NCBI GenBank assembly: GCA_024276575.1
Contig: JAJRWY010000171.1
Location: forward strand, 1,580-65,579
Length of the DNA stretch: 64,000 nucleotides
From: Candidatus Binatota bacterium
Lineage (GTDB): Bacteria; Desulfobacterota; Binatia; UBA1149; CAITLU01
Direction of reading: 5' to 3'
The stretch's first letter is position 1. The number at the start of each line of letters is the position of its first letter. Made by a program: the position numbers and the translations under genes. This document shows positions 8,781-59,505 of the stretch, piece after piece. The notes under the pieces are model-generated. The model made no database searches and was not told the DNA's origin. It worked only from the letters and a program-made list of their open reading frames with translations.

Positions 8781-9596
8781 ATGGAGGGCAGCATGAAGTC
8801 TACGCAAGGTATCGAGCTTAGCGACGTACAAGAGGTCTACAACGGTGCGGAAGGAGACCTCTGGGAGCTGCTGATGGGACAGCAGATTCATATCGGCGGC
8901 TTCTTGTCCTCGATGGACCTAGCCGAGCGTGCGAACATCGGCGCGGGCCGCAAAGGTATCGACCTATGCTGTTGCAACGGCGCGGGCGCCCGCTTTCTAG
9001 TTCGTTTCCGCAATGTTTCATCGATGATCGCTGTCGACGCCTCGCAAACCGTACTCGAGCGCGGGCGCCGACGCTGCGCTAGCTAGGGGCTCGGCGACCG
9101 CATCGACTTCGTGTTGGCCGACGCTTGCGACAGCGGCCTCCCGGACCGAAGCGCGGATTTCGTCTGGGGCGAAGACGCGTGGTGTTATGTGAGCGACAAA
9201 AACAAGCTTCTTTCCGAAGCCGTACGGCTAGTTGAATCCGGGGGGACCATTGCCTTCACGGATTGGGTCGAGGGTCCGGCCGGAATGAGCGATGAAGAAG
9301 CCACACGTTTTCTGAGCTTCATGAAGTTCCCGAACGTCCAGGACATCCCGGGCTACGCGTCCCTGCTCGAACACAACGGATGCGAAGTCGTGTGTGCCGA
9401 AGATACCGAACGCTTCGGACCTTATGTAGACCTATTCCTGGACATGGCGGCCAAGCAACTTACCTACGACGCGCTTTGTATCTTGAACTACGACTTGGTG
9501 GCCCTTGAGACGATTTCGAACGAATTCGCTTTCCTGGGAGAACTCGCCCACGCGGGCAAGATTGCGCAAGCTCGTTTCGTAGCTACCAAAAAGTGA
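8781..9596 (+). pseudogene. SAM-dependent methyltransferase (type 11/SDMT-like) interrupted by one in-frame TAG at 9084..9086
   Basis: ORFs 8781..9086 and 9111..9596 are in the same frame; motif I (DLCCCNGAGARFL) lies upstream of the TAG, the expected downstream motifs (..GLGDRIDFVLADACD.., ..GGTIAFTDW..) follow it. Confidence 0.6.
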
Positions 9597-9605
9597 GGAA
9601 CGGCA

Positions 9606-9926
9606 GTGGCGTGGACTTACCTGGTTTTGGCGATCATCTTGGAAGTCTCGGGTACCGTGAACATGAAACTATCCAAAGGCTTCTCGGTACCCGGCCCTAG
9701 CGCCGCTATCTTCCTTTTCTACGGCTTGAGCCTGTTTTGCCTGACCATGGCCTTGCGCAGCCTCGAAGTATCGGTCGCCTACGCGGTATGGTCGGGTCTT
9801 GGCACCGCGATGGTCGCACTGATCGGTGTGACCTGGTTCGATGAACCCATGAGCGCAGCGAAAGCGCTGTGCATAGCTCTGATAATCGGCGGAGTAGTCG
9901 GCCTGAACTTAATAGAGCGCGCCTGA
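9606..9926 (+). CDS. SMR-family small multidrug-resistance efflux protein (EmrE/SugE-like)
   Basis: 106 aa, four TM helices, conserved membrane-embedded Glu (ILEVSGTV); 9 nt downstream of the methyltransferase. Confidence 0.85.
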   Translation: MAWTYLVLAIILEVSGTVNMKLSKGFSVPGPSAAIFLFYGLSLFCLTMALRSLEVSVAYAVWSGLGTAMVALIGVTWFDEPMSAAKALCIALIIGGVVGLNLIERA

Positions 9927-44703: not shown

Positions 44704-44733
44704 GAAAAGGGGAGCCCTCGAGGGCTCCCCTTT
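44704..44733. terminator. bidirectional intrinsic terminator between convergent patatin and SCP2 genes
   Basis: AAAA-GGGGAGCCC-TCGA-GGGCTCCCC-TTTT perfect hairpin flanked by A- and T-tracts. Confidence 0.6.
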
Positions 44734-44776
44734 TCGCTACAACTTTCGTTGCAGCAGGTCGTTTCCTCTACCGTTT

Positions 44777-55211: not shown

Positions 55212-55307
55212 AAGACTTGGCAGAGTAGGCGGCACATTCCCGGCAAGTCAAGCAATTTAATGGCTGGCCGCAGCAACCAGGCCCGTACAGCGGTAGCGAG
55301 CAAAGCA

Positions 55308-56570
55308 ATGGAACTCGAACTGGAAATTGAAAAGCTCGTCCACGGCCGCGCCGGGCTGGCCCGGCACGAAGGGCGCGTAGTGTTCGTCGACCGGGTAGCT
55401 CCCGGCGATAGGGTGCGGGCGAAAGTCGTGCGCAACAACGAGCGCTACCTAGAAGCGGAACTAATCGAGTTACTCGAAGCCGGCGAGGCGCGCTGCGAAA
55501 GCCCCTGCCCCATCGTAGACCGCTGTGGCGGATGCCCCTGGCAACAGGTGTCTTACCCGCGACAACTGGAGGCCAAACGAAGCGCAGTGATCGATTCGCT
55601 CGAACGAATCGCCGGTATCGACAATCCCGAGGTGGCTCCCGTGGTCTCTTCTCCCGAAATCTTTGGCTATCGCAACCGGCTCAAACTGCGCTTTGAAGCC
55701 GGGAAACTGGGTTTTTACCGAGCGCGCAGCAACTCTTTGGTACCGGTCCCCGACTGCCTGTTGGCGGAAACCCGGGTGCGTGAGGCCTTAGCGGCAGCCG
55801 AGTCTTTCACGGCGTCGCTCAGCACCAACGTAACGCGGGTAGAGATAGCATCGCGAGGACTGCTGCCCGGAGTTCTGCTGGCCGTAAACAGCCGCGGCAG
55901 GCTGCGCCGTTCCGACGCTCACCGGGTCCGGGAGACCATAGAACGCGACGACAACCCAATCGCCGGAGTGGTCATGTGGGGGCGTGGTTGGCGCAGGCAT
56001 TGGGGCGAAAGCGCCCGCAGCCACACAGTGGACGGGCAAGGAACGGTGGTCACGCAAAGCGGCGGCTCCTTCGGGCAAGTCAACGAGAAAGCCAATCTGG
56101 CCCTGGTTGCCGCAGTGGCCGAATACGCTCGAGGGTCACGCTCGGTACTGGAGATTTATGCAGGTGCGGGGAACTTCTCCTTGCCTCTGGCCCGCTGCTG
56201 TGGCCGCGTTACTGCGGTGGAAGCGTACCCCCAGGCAGTGGAGGCGGCCAAAGTGAGCGCGCGCAAGCTGGGACTGGGGAATCTCGACATCATAGAGCGT
56301 AGCGCACGCGATTTTCTCCACGCCTATACGGGAACGGCACCGGAGTTACTGCTCGTTGATCCACCGAGAAACGGCCTTAGCGACTGTGCAGAGGCAGCCG
56401 CCCGCCTGAAAGCGCCCAAACTAGCCTACGTATCCTGCAACCCCGCCACCCTGGCCCGTGATTTGCGATCTTTCATTGACCACGGCTACCGATTCAAGCA
56501 GGCCCTGACTTTCGACATGTTCCCCCATACGTTCCATGTGGAAAGCTTTTGCAGCTTGGAGTTGACATGA
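55308..56570 (+). CDS. rlmD: 23S rRNA (uracil-5-)-methyltransferase RlmD/RumA family (TRAM + Fe-S + MTase)
   Basis: TRAM domain, CxxxxCGGCxxQ Fe-S motif (CPIVDRCGGCPWQQ), class I MTase motifs, C-terminal ..VSCNPATLARD.. Confidence 0.8.
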   Translation: MELELEIEKLVHGRAGLARHEGRVVFVDRVAPGDRVRAKVVRNNERYLEAELIELLEAGEARCESPCPIVDRCGGCPWQQVSYPRQLEAKRSAVIDSLERIAGIDNPEVAPVVSSPEIFGYRNRLKLRFEAGKLGFYRARSNSLVPVPDCLLAETRVREALAAAESFTASLSTNVTRVEIASRGLLPGVLLAVNSRGRLRRSDAHRVRETIERDDNPIAGVVMWGRGWRRHWGESARSHTVDGQGTVVTQSGGSFGQVNEKANLALVAAVAEYARGSRSVLEIYAGAGNFSLPLARCCGRVTAVEAYPQAVEAAKVSARKLGLGNLDIIERSARDFLHAYTGTAPELLLVDPPRNGLSDCAEAAARLKAPKLAYVSCNPATLARDLRSFIDHGYRFKQALTFDMFPHTFHVESFCSLELT

Positions 56571-56584
56571 TGCCCGCCACTGCC

Positions 56585-56700
56585 TACCCTTTTTTCGGGA
56601 AACGGGTGGAAACGGTCAGAAACGGGGTCAGGTCCCGTTTCCATTCGGGAAACGGGACCTGACCCCGTTTCGAAAATGACCCCGTTTCCACCCCGTTTCC
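56585..56700. repeat. extended ~115-bp palindrome centred on a perfect 25-bp-stem hairpin (copy 1)
   Basis: CGAAACGGGGTCAGGTCCCGTTTCC-ATTC-GGGAAACGGGACCTGACCCCGTTTCG with additional GGAAACGG(G) arms on both sides; begins 15 nt after the rlmD stop. Confidence 0.7.
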
Positions 56701-56709
56701 GACACCACA

Positions 56710-56973
56710 ATGAAAAAGAAATCCAGCGCCACCAACCCCGTATCGCCACCAAGAACGAAAATCACCATTATTCCGGGTAAAGGTGTAGCCCAGGCGATCA
56801 ATTATCTGCTCGAAGACCGCGATGAGTTGGAATGGCTGGTCGCGGTGGGCCGCAACAAGGACGGCGAAATATTCTTCTACGACACCGGCGGGGATATCAT
56901 CGAGGATCTCGGTACGCTCGAATATCTGAAAGGGCGCATCGCCAGAGCTCATTTCGGCGAGGACTTTGACTAG
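56710..56973 (+). CDS. hypothetical small protein (87 aa)
   Basis: ORF only; acidic C-terminal half; no recognisable motif; weak RBS. Confidence 0.3.
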   Translation: MKKKSSATNPVSPPRTKITIIPGKGVAQAINYLLEDRDELEWLVAVGRNKDGEIFFYDTGGDIIEDLGTLEYLKGRIARAHFGEDFD

Positions 56974-57110
56974 AAGCCCGGGCGAGCAGCCGGGTAGGGC
57001 GAAAAACCCGCGGGATCGGCGCGCGGACAAGCCGCATCATCTTCACGGCCTTCACCCCGCTCAACGGGGTTGCGCTACTCCGGTCGACGCAGCCTGAACT
57101 TTCCAATCCC

Positions 57111-57794
57111 TTGCGTTACTTTTTCCTCTTCTACCTACTCAACTACCTGCTTCACAATCCCCTATTGGCCCTGATCGTATTGGGGACAGTGTTCTACTTG
57201 GGCGAGGCCCGCTATAGCGGCCGCTATTTCAATCCCACGACTTTCTTCTCGGCTCGATCGCAACTAAGCGAACTCGCAAGTAAGCTCTCCGTCAACCCGC
57301 ACGACGTAGCCGCACACAACGATCTCGGACGCTTGCTGGCCGGCCAGGGCAAGTTCAAAGAGGCCCTACCGCACATGGAAGCCGCGATCGCGCGCATGGA
57401 TGAATCCGCAGAGACCAACTACTTTCTCGGACTCTGCCTACTACACTGCGGCCAAAGCGAATCTGGAATCGAATACATAGAGAAAGCTTTGGAGCTGAGT
57501 CCCTCCTTTCTTTACGGAGAGCCCAGGAGGGTCCTGGCCCGCCACTACTTCGACTCGGGGAACTATCGCGAAGCGGCAGAGCAGGCGCGGCTATGCGTAA
57601 AAAAGAATACTTCGGCGGTAGAGGGTTGGTATCTGCTGGGGGCCTCCGAGCAAGAGCTTGGCAACAAGAAAAAGGCCCGCCAAGCCTACGCAAGCGCAGT
57701 GGAGGCGTATAACAACCTGCCTCACTACTTGAAACTGGCCGGCCGAAGCTGGAACCGCCGCGCCCGCAAGGCACTAAGGTCGCTTCAAGGGTAG
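57111..57794 (+). CDS. TPR-repeat protein with N-terminal transmembrane segment
   Basis: hydrophobic N-terminus then TPR-like helical repeats (..AHNDLGRLLAGQGKFKEALPHMEAAIA.., ..NYFLGLCLLHCGQSESGIEYIEKALEL..). Confidence 0.5.
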   Translation: MRYFFLFYLLNYLLHNPLLALIVLGTVFYLGEARYSGRYFNPTTFFSARSQLSELASKLSVNPHDVAAHNDLGRLLAGQGKFKEALPHMEAAIARMDESAETNYFLGLCLLHCGQSESGIEYIEKALELSPSFLYGEPRRVLARHYFDSGNYREAAEQARLCVKKNTSAVEGWYLLGASEQELGNKKKARQAYASAVEAYNNLPHYLKLAGRSWNRRARKALRSLQG

Positions 57795-57846
57795 AAACGG
57801 GGTCAGGTCCCGTTTCCTTTTGGAAACGGGACCTGACCCCGTTTCT
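57793..57846. repeat. perfect 25-bp-stem palindrome, copy 2 (identical stem to 56614..56668)
   Basis: GAAACGGGGTCAGGTCCCGTTTCC-TTTTG-GAAACGGGACCTGACCCCGTTTC starting at the TPR gene stop codon. Confidence 0.7.
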
Positions 57847-58125
57847 GTCGTTTCTGCCTGCGGGATCTGAACTGCGGGAATTGACAACGTCGCGGCGCTT
57901 TGATGAAAAAAAGCGGCCAGTGATTGTCCTTCGCTTCAGCTCTAAACGGTCGTTCTCGACCGGTTTCACTTGACTGCTCAGCATCGGTCGCGTGCCGATC
58001 TAGTCTAGTCCCATCACTTTAGCACTTTAGCTCTATCCGGAGCGCCGTCGGCCGCAGCCATTCTCGCGTCTGCCATCTAAGATCGCGCAGACGCCGGCCA
58101 CGCCGCACAAGACCGCGAGGCAGTC

Positions 58126-59505
58126 ATGTCACCACGAATCGTTATCTCATCTTGGGTACGTTCTCGGCTCTTTTCTCTCGTAGCTTTGCTGCCGATACTG
58201 CTGATACCGCTCGGCAATGCTGAAGCGTCACCTTCGAAAGCACAGCTCGAAGCGCGAGTCGAGCAACTCGAAAGTCAGAATCGCGAGATCCTCGAGACCC
58301 TGAAAGCCTTGCAGGAAGTGCTGCAAGAAAGAACGCAGCCAACGGAAGCAACAGCGGAGGCGCCAGCCCCCCCGGCCCGGCTCGCAGACGAGAGCACCAA
58401 GAAGCAGCCGGTCCGTGCCGGCAACAGCTTGGAGCCCTACGGCTTCGTGCGCATCGACTTCATCGGCGATGATTCGCTCCCGAGCAACGCGCAAACGCCT
58501 TTCTTCATTCGTTCCCCGGATAACCCCGGCGGCGGAGATCCAAATTTCACGCTCCATCCCCGGCTGACGCGTCTTGGTCTTCGGGTGCACGGACCGGAAC
58601 TCGCAACGCTGGCCGGCTCGAAGCTGGCGGGGCGCATCGAAGTCGACTTCCAAAACGGCGGCAGCGAGTCGCGTGAGATCATCCGCATTCGCCATGCCTA
58701 CATCGAACTTGAACACGGCGACTGGAGCTTGCTCGCAGGGCAAACCTGGGATGTGATTTCACCGCTGCTGCCTACGGCCAACAATGACACTTTGATGTGG
58801 AACGCCGGCAACCTCGGAGACCGGCGCCCTCAATTTCGTGTGGACTACCATCCCTCGCTAGGCGGTGGGGAACTGTCACTAGTGGGGGCCTTGGGCCTCG
58901 GCGGCGCCATCAATGCCCGTGATCTCGACGGCGATGGAGTGCGCGACGGGGAAGCTTCGGCTCAGCCCAACTACCAGGGTCGCTTGGGTTACAGCCACTC
59001 GCTGTGGCGAAAAGATGCACACTTGACCCTTGGCGCATGGGGACACTACGCAAGAGAGAAAAGTAGCAGCACCGTAGGCGGCAAAAGTCATTTCGAAGGC
59101 CTCTCGGCAGGCATTGACTACGATCTCTCGCTCAGTGAAGCGCTACGGCTACGCGGCGAGGCTTTCTATGGAAAAGATCTTCCGGAGTTCCGCGGCGGCA
59201 TCGGCCAAGGGGTCAATAGCAGCAGTGGGCGAGAGATAGAGAGCAGGGGCGGATGGAGCGAGTTGGCTTTGAAACTCAACACCATCGACACTGTCTACTG
59301 TGGTTTTGGCATCGACGATCCCGACAACAGCGACCTCGAAGAAGGCGCGCGCACGCGCAACCGGGTCTGGTGGATCGGCAACCGCCTGCGCCTCGCCCCG
59401 GCGCTCCTCGTGGGACTCGACTACCTACGCTGGAGCACGGATTTCGACGGCCTGCGCCGCGGCCGCGACAACCGGGTGAACCTGTACTTTCAATACGACC
59501 TGTAA
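58126..59505 (+). CDS. putative outer-membrane porin with N-terminal coiled coil (DcaP-like)
   Basis: signal peptide, heptad-like ..QLEARVEQLESQNREILETLKALQEVLQE.., then alternating amphipathic beta-strand pattern ending ..VNLYFQYDL. Confidence 0.5.
   Translation: MSPRIVISSWVRSRLFSLVALLPILLIPLGNAEASPSKAQLEARVEQLESQNREILETLKALQEVLQERTQPTEATAEAPAPPARLADESTKKQPVRAGNSLEPYGFVRIDFIGDDSLPSNAQTPFFIRSPDNPGGGDPNFTLHPRLTRLGLRVHGPELATLAGSKLAGRIEVDFQNGGSESREIIRIRHAYIELEHGDWSLLAGQTWDVISPLLPTANNDTLMWNAGNLGDRRPQFRVDYHPSLGGGELSLVGALGLGGAINARDLDGDGVRDGEASAQPNYQGRLGYSHSLWRKDAHLTLGAWGHYAREKSSSTVGGKSHFEGLSAGIDYDLSLSEALRLRGEAFYGKDLPEFRGGIGQGVNSSSGREIESRGGWSELALKLNTIDTVYCGFGIDDPDNSDLEEGARTRNRVWWIGNRLRLAPALLVGLDYLRWSTDFDGLRRGRDNRVNLYFQYDL

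Follow-up and report, generated by a model that had tools for sequence, protein, structure and literature searches.

Introduction

Repetitive extragenic palindromic (REP) sequences can be arranged as REPINs, in which two inverted REPs form a hairpin, and the single-copy Y1 transposases that are flanked by REPs or REPINs are termed REP-associated tyrosine transposases (RAYTs) (PMC3337134; PMC5581495). Most REPs are tagged with GTAG or CGTC; RAYT-like genes with untagged inverted repeats are named TIRtrons or TIRYTs in the account by Di Nocera, De Gregorio & Rocco (2013, PMC3733652), according to which many of the repeats flanking TIRYTs share the motif GGGGWSAS and make up moderately abundant families, found as dimers or clusters in groups that include the Acidobacteria. 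Here we describe two long hairpins in a 64-kb stretch of DNA from a Candidatus Binatota bacterium (contig JAJRWY010000171.1; the whole stretch is termed the window, and all coordinates refer to it unless a locus in another genome, denoted by an L number, is named). The hairpins lie downstream of the methyltransferase gene rlmD, on either side of a small open reading frame (ORF) for an 87-aa protein (ORF87) and a gene for a TPR protein. We consider it likely that they are REPIN-like doublets of a GGGGWSAS-type repeat family associated with Y1 transposases. So understood, they are miniature insertions of the mobile type that occupy two gene spacers, a fairly ordinary element in a new lineage, and the only unusual aspects are the unexplained mirrored arrays of truncated repeats and the sharing of one unit across phyla. 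With them, the range of RAYT/TIRYT-associated repeats comes to include a little-studied, uncultured Binatia-like lineage, and the hairpins are assigned to a concrete, testable mechanism.

The loci in the window have much in common with the REPIN/RAYT system (Bertels & Rainey 2011, Nunvar 2010, Ton-Hoang 2012). Both consist of an inverted pair of imperfect palindromes of ~20-25 nt that folds as a long hairpin, both are extragenic and often situated just past genes, and in both singlets, doublets and tandem clusters occur; in other genomes a Y1/HUH transposase gene is enclosed by inverted copies of this unit, and transposase and repeat covary. They differ in the doublet spacer (4-5 nt here, as against 18-110 nt in Pseudomonas fluorescens), in the lack of a GTAG tag and in a transposase that scores below the NCBIfam RAYT cutoff; moreover, different phyla share a near-identical unit here, while the inheritance of REPIN-RAYT systems is described as mostly vertical. 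The window units fit the TIRtron/TIRYT repeats best, likened by motif and description rather than by listed TIR sequences, because they carry GGGGTCAG or GGGGACAG and have no GTAG. In the available part of PMC3733652, GGGGWSAS inverted repeats flank the Y1 gene at short, similar distances, some overlapping it, and the repeats are without GTAG, moderately abundant, arranged in dimers or clusters, and known from Acidobacteria and from phyla that have no classical REPs; a Binatia-like host and mirrored truncated-repeat arrays are absent from that part of the source.

Two further systems are instructive. The bacterial interspersed mosaic elements (BIMEs) and REPs of Escherichia coli likewise place palindromic units of alternating orientation in intergenic, often intra-operon, spacers, and hairpins downstream of a gene can shield the upstream mRNA or reduce read-through, effects that we infer for the present loci; their sequences are unrelated, and no IHF or gyrase motifs were identified here. 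Miniature inverted-repeat transposable elements (MITEs) derived from the insertion sequences (ISs) IS200/IS605 are also short non-autonomous elements that comprise the two ends of a transposase-bearing parent, fold as a hairpin and are mobilized in trans via single-stranded DNA. True IS200/IS605 ends, unlike those described here, are not inverted repeats of one another, and the IS is multi-copy.

Structure of the two palindromic loci

The 24-mer GAAACGGGGTCAGGTCCCGTTTCC is present in four exact copies in the window, at 56619-56642 (+), 56648-56671 (-), 57794-57817 (+) and 57822-57845 (-), with no further copy in the window at ≤3 mismatches, and 0 of 100 shuffles gave any. The first two copies are the left and right arms of hairpin 1 (56619-56671; perfect 24-bp arms, 5-nt loop), and the last two are those of hairpin 2 (57793-57846; perfect 25-bp arms, 4-nt loop TTTT). 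The arms are 100% complementary and are identical between the hairpins. Two identical long perfect hairpins had been proposed for this region in the original prediction, and four identical arms, with none expected by chance, confirm them; the coordinates given then were exact for hairpin 2 and off by 3-5 nt for hairpin 1 (56614-56668). Each arm is in addition a 23-nt imperfect palindrome, GAAACGGGGTCAGGTCCCGTTTC, a feature that had been overlooked: the single 24-nt arm is an inverted repeat of GAAACGGG, with the layout GAAACGGG-GTCAGGT-CCCGTTTC. This 23-nt unit alone forms a small hairpin as DNA (-7.4 kcal/mol), and the commonest variant of the family, which has an internal mismatch, folds at -3.3 kcal/mol.

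Hairpin 1 is nested inside a larger imperfect palindrome, correctly suspected at the outset, that spans 108 bp (locus 1; 56595-56702) and whose outer 21-nt arms are 86% complementary. Its start is 25 nt past the rlmD stop (56570), and its end is 8 nt upstream of the ORF87 ATG (56710). From left to right, locus 1 is composed of two truncated forward copies of the 5′ part of the unit at 10-nt spacing (GGGAAACGGGT and GGAAACGGTCA; 56597-56618, + strand), the full forward unit, the 5-nt loop, the full reverse unit and two truncated reverse copies (TGACCCCGTTTCC and ACCCCGTTTCCGA; 56677-56702, - strand) that mirror those on the left. Counted as an 8-mer, eight copies follow one another as F F F R F R R R (F, forward; R, reverse), the three leading forward copies being 10 nt apart. 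Locus 2 is a doublet in the form of a perfect hairpin with a T-rich tail (57793-57846), the start of which is contained in the TAG stop codon of the TPR gene (57792-57794); its 8-mers run F R F R, with one further reverse copy that is degenerate. This degenerate truncated copy (GTCGTTTCTG; 57847-57856, - strand) is weak, was read from the sequence, lies 9-10 nt past the CGTTTC of the unit and forms part of the T-rich tail. The 8-mer GGAAACGG occurs nine times in the window, and eight of the nine occurrences are within loci 1 and 2.

Both loci are predicted to fold strongly. RNA folding gave -83 kcal/mol (z = -10.2) for the 126-nt stretch 56585-56710 at locus 1 and -56 kcal/mol (z = -12.6) for a 76-nt stretch around hairpin 2, and as DNA slightly shorter stretches folded at -53 and -34 kcal/mol, respectively. 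The units in the window are extragenic, situated between rlmD and ORF87 at locus 1 and on or past the stop of the TPR gene at locus 2; a test of this property by spanning ORFs and GC content at third codon positions was non-discriminating, as GC-rich DNA yields spurious ORFs of 150-200 aa even across known spacers. The original prediction held that neither hairpin has a U-tract. This is true of hairpin 1, whose tail is TTTC followed by GAAAA and which is not flagged by a terminator scan; hairpin 2 is followed by TTTCTGTCGTTTCTG and is flagged, with 5 T in the first 8 nt past the GC stem. With its T-rich tail, hairpin 2 probably acts as a terminator or 3′-end stabilizer of the rlmD-ORF87-TPR transcript. 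In annotation, doublets of this kind should be masked as repeats and regarded as likely boundaries of transcripts.

A perfect 32-nt palindrome with an A-tract, a GC stem and a T-tract (GAAAAGGGGAGCCCTCGAGGGCTCCCCTTTTC) is found elsewhere in the window at 44704-44735; it is in the style of a bidirectional terminator, similar in shape to the REP-like units and different in sequence.

A repeat family beyond the window

Near-identical units were found in other genomes when the pattern was relaxed. A looser forward-reverse-forward pattern gave seven single matches in reference genomes, five of which (L004, L005, L007, L008 and L009) are unrelated hairpins and were excluded; the others, L003 (Vicinamibacterales) and L006 (Acidobacteriota), are both from metagenome-assembled genomes (MAGs) of Acidobacteriota and contain clusters of very similar units. 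L003 carries GGAAACGGGGACAGGTCCAGTTTCC, which is identical to the window arm at 23 of 25 positions, outside the stretch matched by the pattern, and its units sit between convergent ORFs. The single-unit pattern GAAACGGGGNCAGGNCCNGTTTC returned 43 metagenome loci, and GAAACGGGG[T/A]CAGGTCCAGTTTC accounts for 30 of the 48 matches to it. From 62 non-identical instances, drawn from the window, the 43 metagenome loci and the two MAG loci, the consensus of the unit is [G/A]AAACGGGG[T/A]CAGG[T/c]CC[A/c]GTTTC; its flanks are not conserved. Position 18 of the unit is most often an A that does not pair, and sequence is therefore conserved beyond the mere ability to form a hairpin. All units contain GGGGTCAG or GGGGACAG, both of which fit GGGGWSAS.

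The layouts seen in the window also recur. Inverted doublets with short spacers are present in L010, L035, L050 and L052, and L050 (4085-4365) repeats the arrangement of locus 1 at a larger scale, with truncated forward copies, a full forward unit, a spacer, a full reverse unit and truncated reverse copies. In L046, six truncated copies of 18 nt stand ahead of a full unit, and mirrored or truncated 5′ repeats are found in L050, L046 and L028 and beside RAYT-like genes. Several planctomycete loci (1.8-14.7 kb), selected for containing the unit or a RAYT homologue, carry 3-7 units, and the units of L054 and L055 that are away from the transposase gene lie between called genes.

The runs of 5′-truncated copies deserve separate description. 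With a period of 10-18 nt, they are located beyond the full unit, usually with a mirror-image run on the opposite arm, and are found in free doublets as well as in the regions flanking transposase genes. Examples are those at 56597-56618 and 56677-56702 of the window, L050 4100-4355, L046 1227-1317, L028 4368-4392, L053 10690-10715, and L055 9880-9935 and 10660-10700. We know of no mechanism for such recurrent runs. They offer a small handle on how Y1 transposases generate clusters of REPs, a process for which no mechanism is given in PMC3337134.

Several searches returned nothing of relevance. The unit was not found in viral contigs and locus 1 had no match in annotated plasmids or phages, and a phage or plasmid origin was rejected on these grounds. 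Comparison with Rfam gave only sub-threshold lookalikes of miRNA hairpins in the region, with no family reaching threshold in the whole window, and a literature string search for the unit core retrieved only unrelated primers and human sites. Some other classes of repeat were considered and rejected: CRISPR on anatomy (no spacers, and a spacing that is too short), a DNA-uptake sequence since the 8-mer is not enriched outside loci 1 and 2, and a fragment of SRP RNA since only the 9-mer GTCAGGTCC is in common.

Association with Y1 transposase genes

By sequence, the window unit belongs to a family that brackets Y1 transposase genes in Planctomycetota and other environmental bacteria. One such gene is in L041, where the ORF at 6456-7133 matches Pfam Y1_Tnp (E = 1.6e-13; 51.3 bits against a cutoff of 23) and has as its sole NCBIfam match NF047646, REP_Tyr_transpos (REP-associated tyrosine transposase; 69.3 bits). 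This gene has a forward unit 26 nt ahead of its ATG and two reverse units downstream. Searches with tblastn located homologues of the L041 transposase that adjoin units in L017, L036, L046 and L010, and another homologue in L044; in L010, a doublet of units is found ~460 nt downstream of the Y1/HUH gene. At the protein level the transposase belongs to a clade of >7,900 proteins at E ≤ 1e-20, the named members of which are all from Planctomycetota. Three clade members on long contigs (L053, L054 and L055, one of them from the isolate Posidoniimonas polymericola) are 60-66% identical.

A flanking unit accompanies the Y1/HUH gene in six independent loci (a downstream doublet in the case of L010), and the unit flanks the gene in inverted orientation in L041, L036, L017, L053, L054 and L055. 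Five independent genes (L041, L036, L053, L054 and L055), 60-100% identical to one another, are bracketed by a forward unit upstream and a reverse unit at or past the stop. The forward unit precedes the ATG by 26-36 nt in L041, L036, L053 and L054 (35-36 nt in the last two), and a diverged forward copy does so by ~68 nt in L055; the reverse unit abuts or overlaps the stop codon in L053-L055 (-2 to +7 nt), and in L041 and L036 it follows the stop at a distance of 154-345 nt. In L053 and L055 there are truncated copies on the outer side of the full reverse unit; in L054 and L055 truncated forward copies stand ahead of the forward unit. A more distant case is the Y1 gene of L044 (10056-10712, reverse strand), a 38%-identical homologue both flanks of which carry a different doublet, AAAAAGGGGACACTCCCCTTTTT-GA-AAAAAGGGGAGTGTCCCCTTTT, whose repeat contains GGGGACAC and so matches GGGGWSAS. 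As the homologue is distant and the doublet different but of the same style, transposase and repeat vary together.

Other features of these contigs were recorded. The L044 contig also carries a lone GAAACGGGGACAGGCCCCGTTTC unit ~4 kb away. Between the transposase stop and the downstream reverse units there are heptamer or octamer microsatellites (GTTGCGA, GCGGCGA, GTAGTGA, GCTGGTGA and GTTGGTGA) in L041 (7133-7215), L036 (1044-1330) and L017 (1545-1830), which are long and differ in length between samples. In L053 (9945-10000), L054 (9944-10000) and L055 (9911-10000), the upstream forward unit is directly followed by TTGACA and, ~17 nt later, by a TA-rich hexamer, so that the unit abuts a sigma-70-like promoter of the transposase gene. 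L040, a planctomycete-like contig that also encodes an FGE-sulfatase-type protein, has a gene for a phage-integrase-family tyrosine recombinase (8805-9905, +) ~250 nt from a cluster of four units.

Insertion into a conserved operon

The hairpins of the window are set in a well-conserved gene order. On the + strand, rlmD (55260-56570; 23S rRNA U1939 methyltransferase; supported by Pfam and by TIGR00479 at 254.7 bits against a cutoff of 183.55) is followed by ORF87 (56710-56973), a conserved protein without a Pfam or NCBIfam match, and by the gene for a 227-aa TPR protein with a hydrophobic N-terminus (57111-57794), which has a well-populated family of orthologues of ~226 aa; both of the latter genes are outside the element. 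In relatives the conserved block reads RNR, DciA, ThiI, NUDIX, MBL-hydrolase, rlmD, an 87-90-aa ORF, TPR, DUF1015, Sua5, PurE and PurD, and the window shares this RNR-to-PurD block on both sides of the hairpin region. The order of rlmD, the 87-90-aa ORF and TPR is kept in all six syntenic relatives examined, one of which carries the NCBI name Candidatus Binatia, and no unit was found in these six at ≤5 mismatches (~86 kb searched). It is from this synteny and from the best named homologue that the window is judged to be Binatia-like.

The spacer between rlmD and the small ORF is 139 nt in the window. In L056 and L057 the two genes overlap by 4 nt, in L001 and L002 they are ~50 nt apart, and L058 and L059 have an unrelated spacer of 186 nt. 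The window spacer aligns with those of L001 and L002 through conserved flanks (…CTACCCTTTT… and …CCAC-ATGAAGAAGAA) between which the window has ~90-100 extra nt. Because the spacers of these relatives share the flanks but not the extra nucleotides, the palindromes are lineage-specific insertions into a conserved operon, gained in the lineage of the window. L001 and L002 have a GGGAG Shine-Dalgarno-like motif at the position occupied by hairpin 1, and no such motif is left within 20 nt of the ORF87 ATG in the window; hairpin 1 may for this reason lower or gate translation of the 87-aa ORF.

Origin of the hairpins

The interpretation of the hairpins as REPIN-like doublets comes with a mechanism. 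Each doublet would consist of two inverted copies of the 23-nt REP-like unit, 4-5 nt apart, representing both ends of a transposase-bearing element joined without the gene, i.e. a miniature non-autonomous derivative. A Y1 transposase encoded elsewhere in the genome would recognise the folded single-stranded hairpin, cutting and rejoining it in trans, and identical copies could thereby have been placed in two spacers of the conserved operon, between rlmD and the small ORF and at the TPR stop. As all four units in the window are identical, recent copying is plausible, as is ongoing homogenization. That the hairpins are REP/BIME-like rather than plain terminators had been anticipated in the original prediction, and this view is upheld by the family of the arms, which brackets RAYT-like Y1 genes elsewhere, and by the inverted-doublet layout, which is that of a REPIN.

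A number of observations weigh against this interpretation. There are only two doublets in 64 kb, 1.2 kb apart, and none in the other 62 kb, so that the over-representation by which REPs are defined is not displayed and the window does not resemble that of a dense REP family. The window contains no Y1 transposase (best tblastn E = 0.77), and the score of the L041 transposase is below the NF047646 cutoff of 80 bits. Scans for the exact 23-mer gave no match in 185,579 reference genomes (one per species) or in JGI metagenomes, sets that do not include the source genome, and a widespread exact repeat was rejected on this basis. The strict forward-reverse-forward pattern never matched more than once per reference genome, leaving a high copy number unproven, and the 43 metagenome matches include probable chance or intragenic ones (e.g. 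L030 and L039). Finally, no conserved GTAG or CGTC tag was present at -12 to -1 or +24 to +35 in the 62 instances; the GTAG before hairpin 2 is part of the TPR stop-codon context and has no counterpart at locus 1. It is the sparse doublets, the single strict matches and the sub-cutoff transposase that keep our confidence at likely and no higher. It had been suggested beforehand that a motif found only here, with the segment conserved in relatives that have no palindromes, would argue against a mobile or REP role, and the outcome falls half on each side: the exact motif is unique in the collections searched and the relatives are without palindromes, yet a near-identical unit is widespread and tied to transposases.

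The hairpins could instead be ordinary intrinsic terminators or mRNA-stabilizing hairpins of local origin, copied by local duplication or gene conversion and with no mobile history. Each hairpin follows a + strand gene, hairpin 2 overlaps the stop codon of the TPR gene and has a terminator-like tail, the unit itself has the shape A-tract/GC-stem/T-tract, the window has a second palindrome in bidirectional-terminator style, and the L003 units are positioned between convergent ORFs. Hairpin 1, however, has no U-tract and is inside an operon that is tight in relatives (overlap or ~50 nt in 4 of 6), and the recurrence across unrelated phyla of a 23-nt sequence, including its non-pairing position, that brackets Y1 genes is unexpected for a terminator that evolved locally. 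We regard this explanation as unlikely; a terminator role is compatible with REPIN-like doublets as a secondary effect, not as their origin. Less likely still is that the GGAAACGG half-site arrays are an operator, i.e. a multi-site platform for a regulator or nucleoid protein controlling the small-ORF/TPR pair. Such a role would suit the eight half-sites of locus 1, with the first three forward copies about one helical turn apart, the bracketing of exactly one gene pair by two sites and the GGAC-AG-GTCC core, a DNA-type palindrome in many family members; regulatory binding of REPINs by RAYTs has also been speculated on by Bertels and Rainey (PMC3337134). Against it, relatives keep the same highly conserved operon without any such site, family members reside in unrelated gene contexts, no regulator gene is adjacent, and the period of the truncated repeats varies from 10 to 18 nt between loci, which is a misfit with a fixed binding register.

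Identical self-palindromic sequences around exactly two genes invite the reading, raised in the original prediction, that they are the recombination ends of a mobile cassette, integron-attC-like or other, carrying the small ORF and the TPR gene, and hairpin 2 indeed borders a slot that differs in content from one relative to another. This misreading, however tempting, is corrected by synteny, and we judge it very improbable: the block of MBL, rlmD, small ORF and TPR is conserved in six unit-free relatives, with rlmD overlapping the small ORF in two of them (L056 and L057), no integrase or recombinase is encoded among the neighbours, attC-type core sites are lacking and GC content is flat across the inter-hairpin segment. 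The integron attC class in particular was rejected on the absence of an integrase among the neighbours and the fixed ORF87-TPR synteny. Identical palindromes around two genes do not, in this case, make a mobile cassette. It is just as hard to credit that the palindromes are assembly or amplification artefacts (fold-back chimeras): whilst the source appears to be a MAG contig, and chimeric reads can create perfect palindromes, the arms are only 24-25 nt long and lie between intact, correctly ordered genes, and the unit and its architecture are found in dozens of independent assemblies, including an isolate genome.

Returning to the REPIN-like doublets, one 23-nt unit is common to at least three phyla, which bears on whether such systems are strictly inherited vertically. 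The GGGGWSAS-type unit may be a single family, ancient or horizontally spreading, common to Planctomycetota, Acidobacteriota and the Binatia-like lineage, and the mirrored 5′-truncated arrays could be a record of hairpin processing by the Y1 enzyme through iterative cleavage and rejoining or template switching. A joint reading, in which one cross-phylum REPIN-like family, arrays that record Y1 processing and a doublet co-opted as a switch for ORF87-TPR all hold together, seems to us rather unlikely. If it were true, a single shared family would contradict the view of REPIN-RAYT systems as lineage-bound and vertically inherited, and the presence of the doublet in place of the ORF87 ribosome-binding region would imply its co-option as a translational or attenuation switch in the ORF87-TPR operon.

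Neighbouring genes

The small ORF between the hairpins is under very strong constraint. Identity to the orthologue is 93% in L001 and 84% in L002 for ORF87, as against only 67% and 59%, respectively, for the adjacent TPR protein; residues 15-87 of ORF87 are almost invariant, and its gene always separates rlmD from the TPR gene. It belongs to a small family (64 representative clusters in 1.84 billion proteins), and there are a few weak multi-stretch matches to ORF87 in very long proteins (P0260, P0269 and P0274). Directly downstream of hairpin 2, between the TPR and DUF1015 genes, the window has a 459-aa ORF (58126-59505, +) with a signal-peptide-like N-terminus and a coiled-coil-like stretch, which resembles an outer membrane protein (weak DcaP match only). 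The same slot is empty in L002 and L058 and is occupied by DHFR-ThyA in L056, making it a lineage-variable insertion point.

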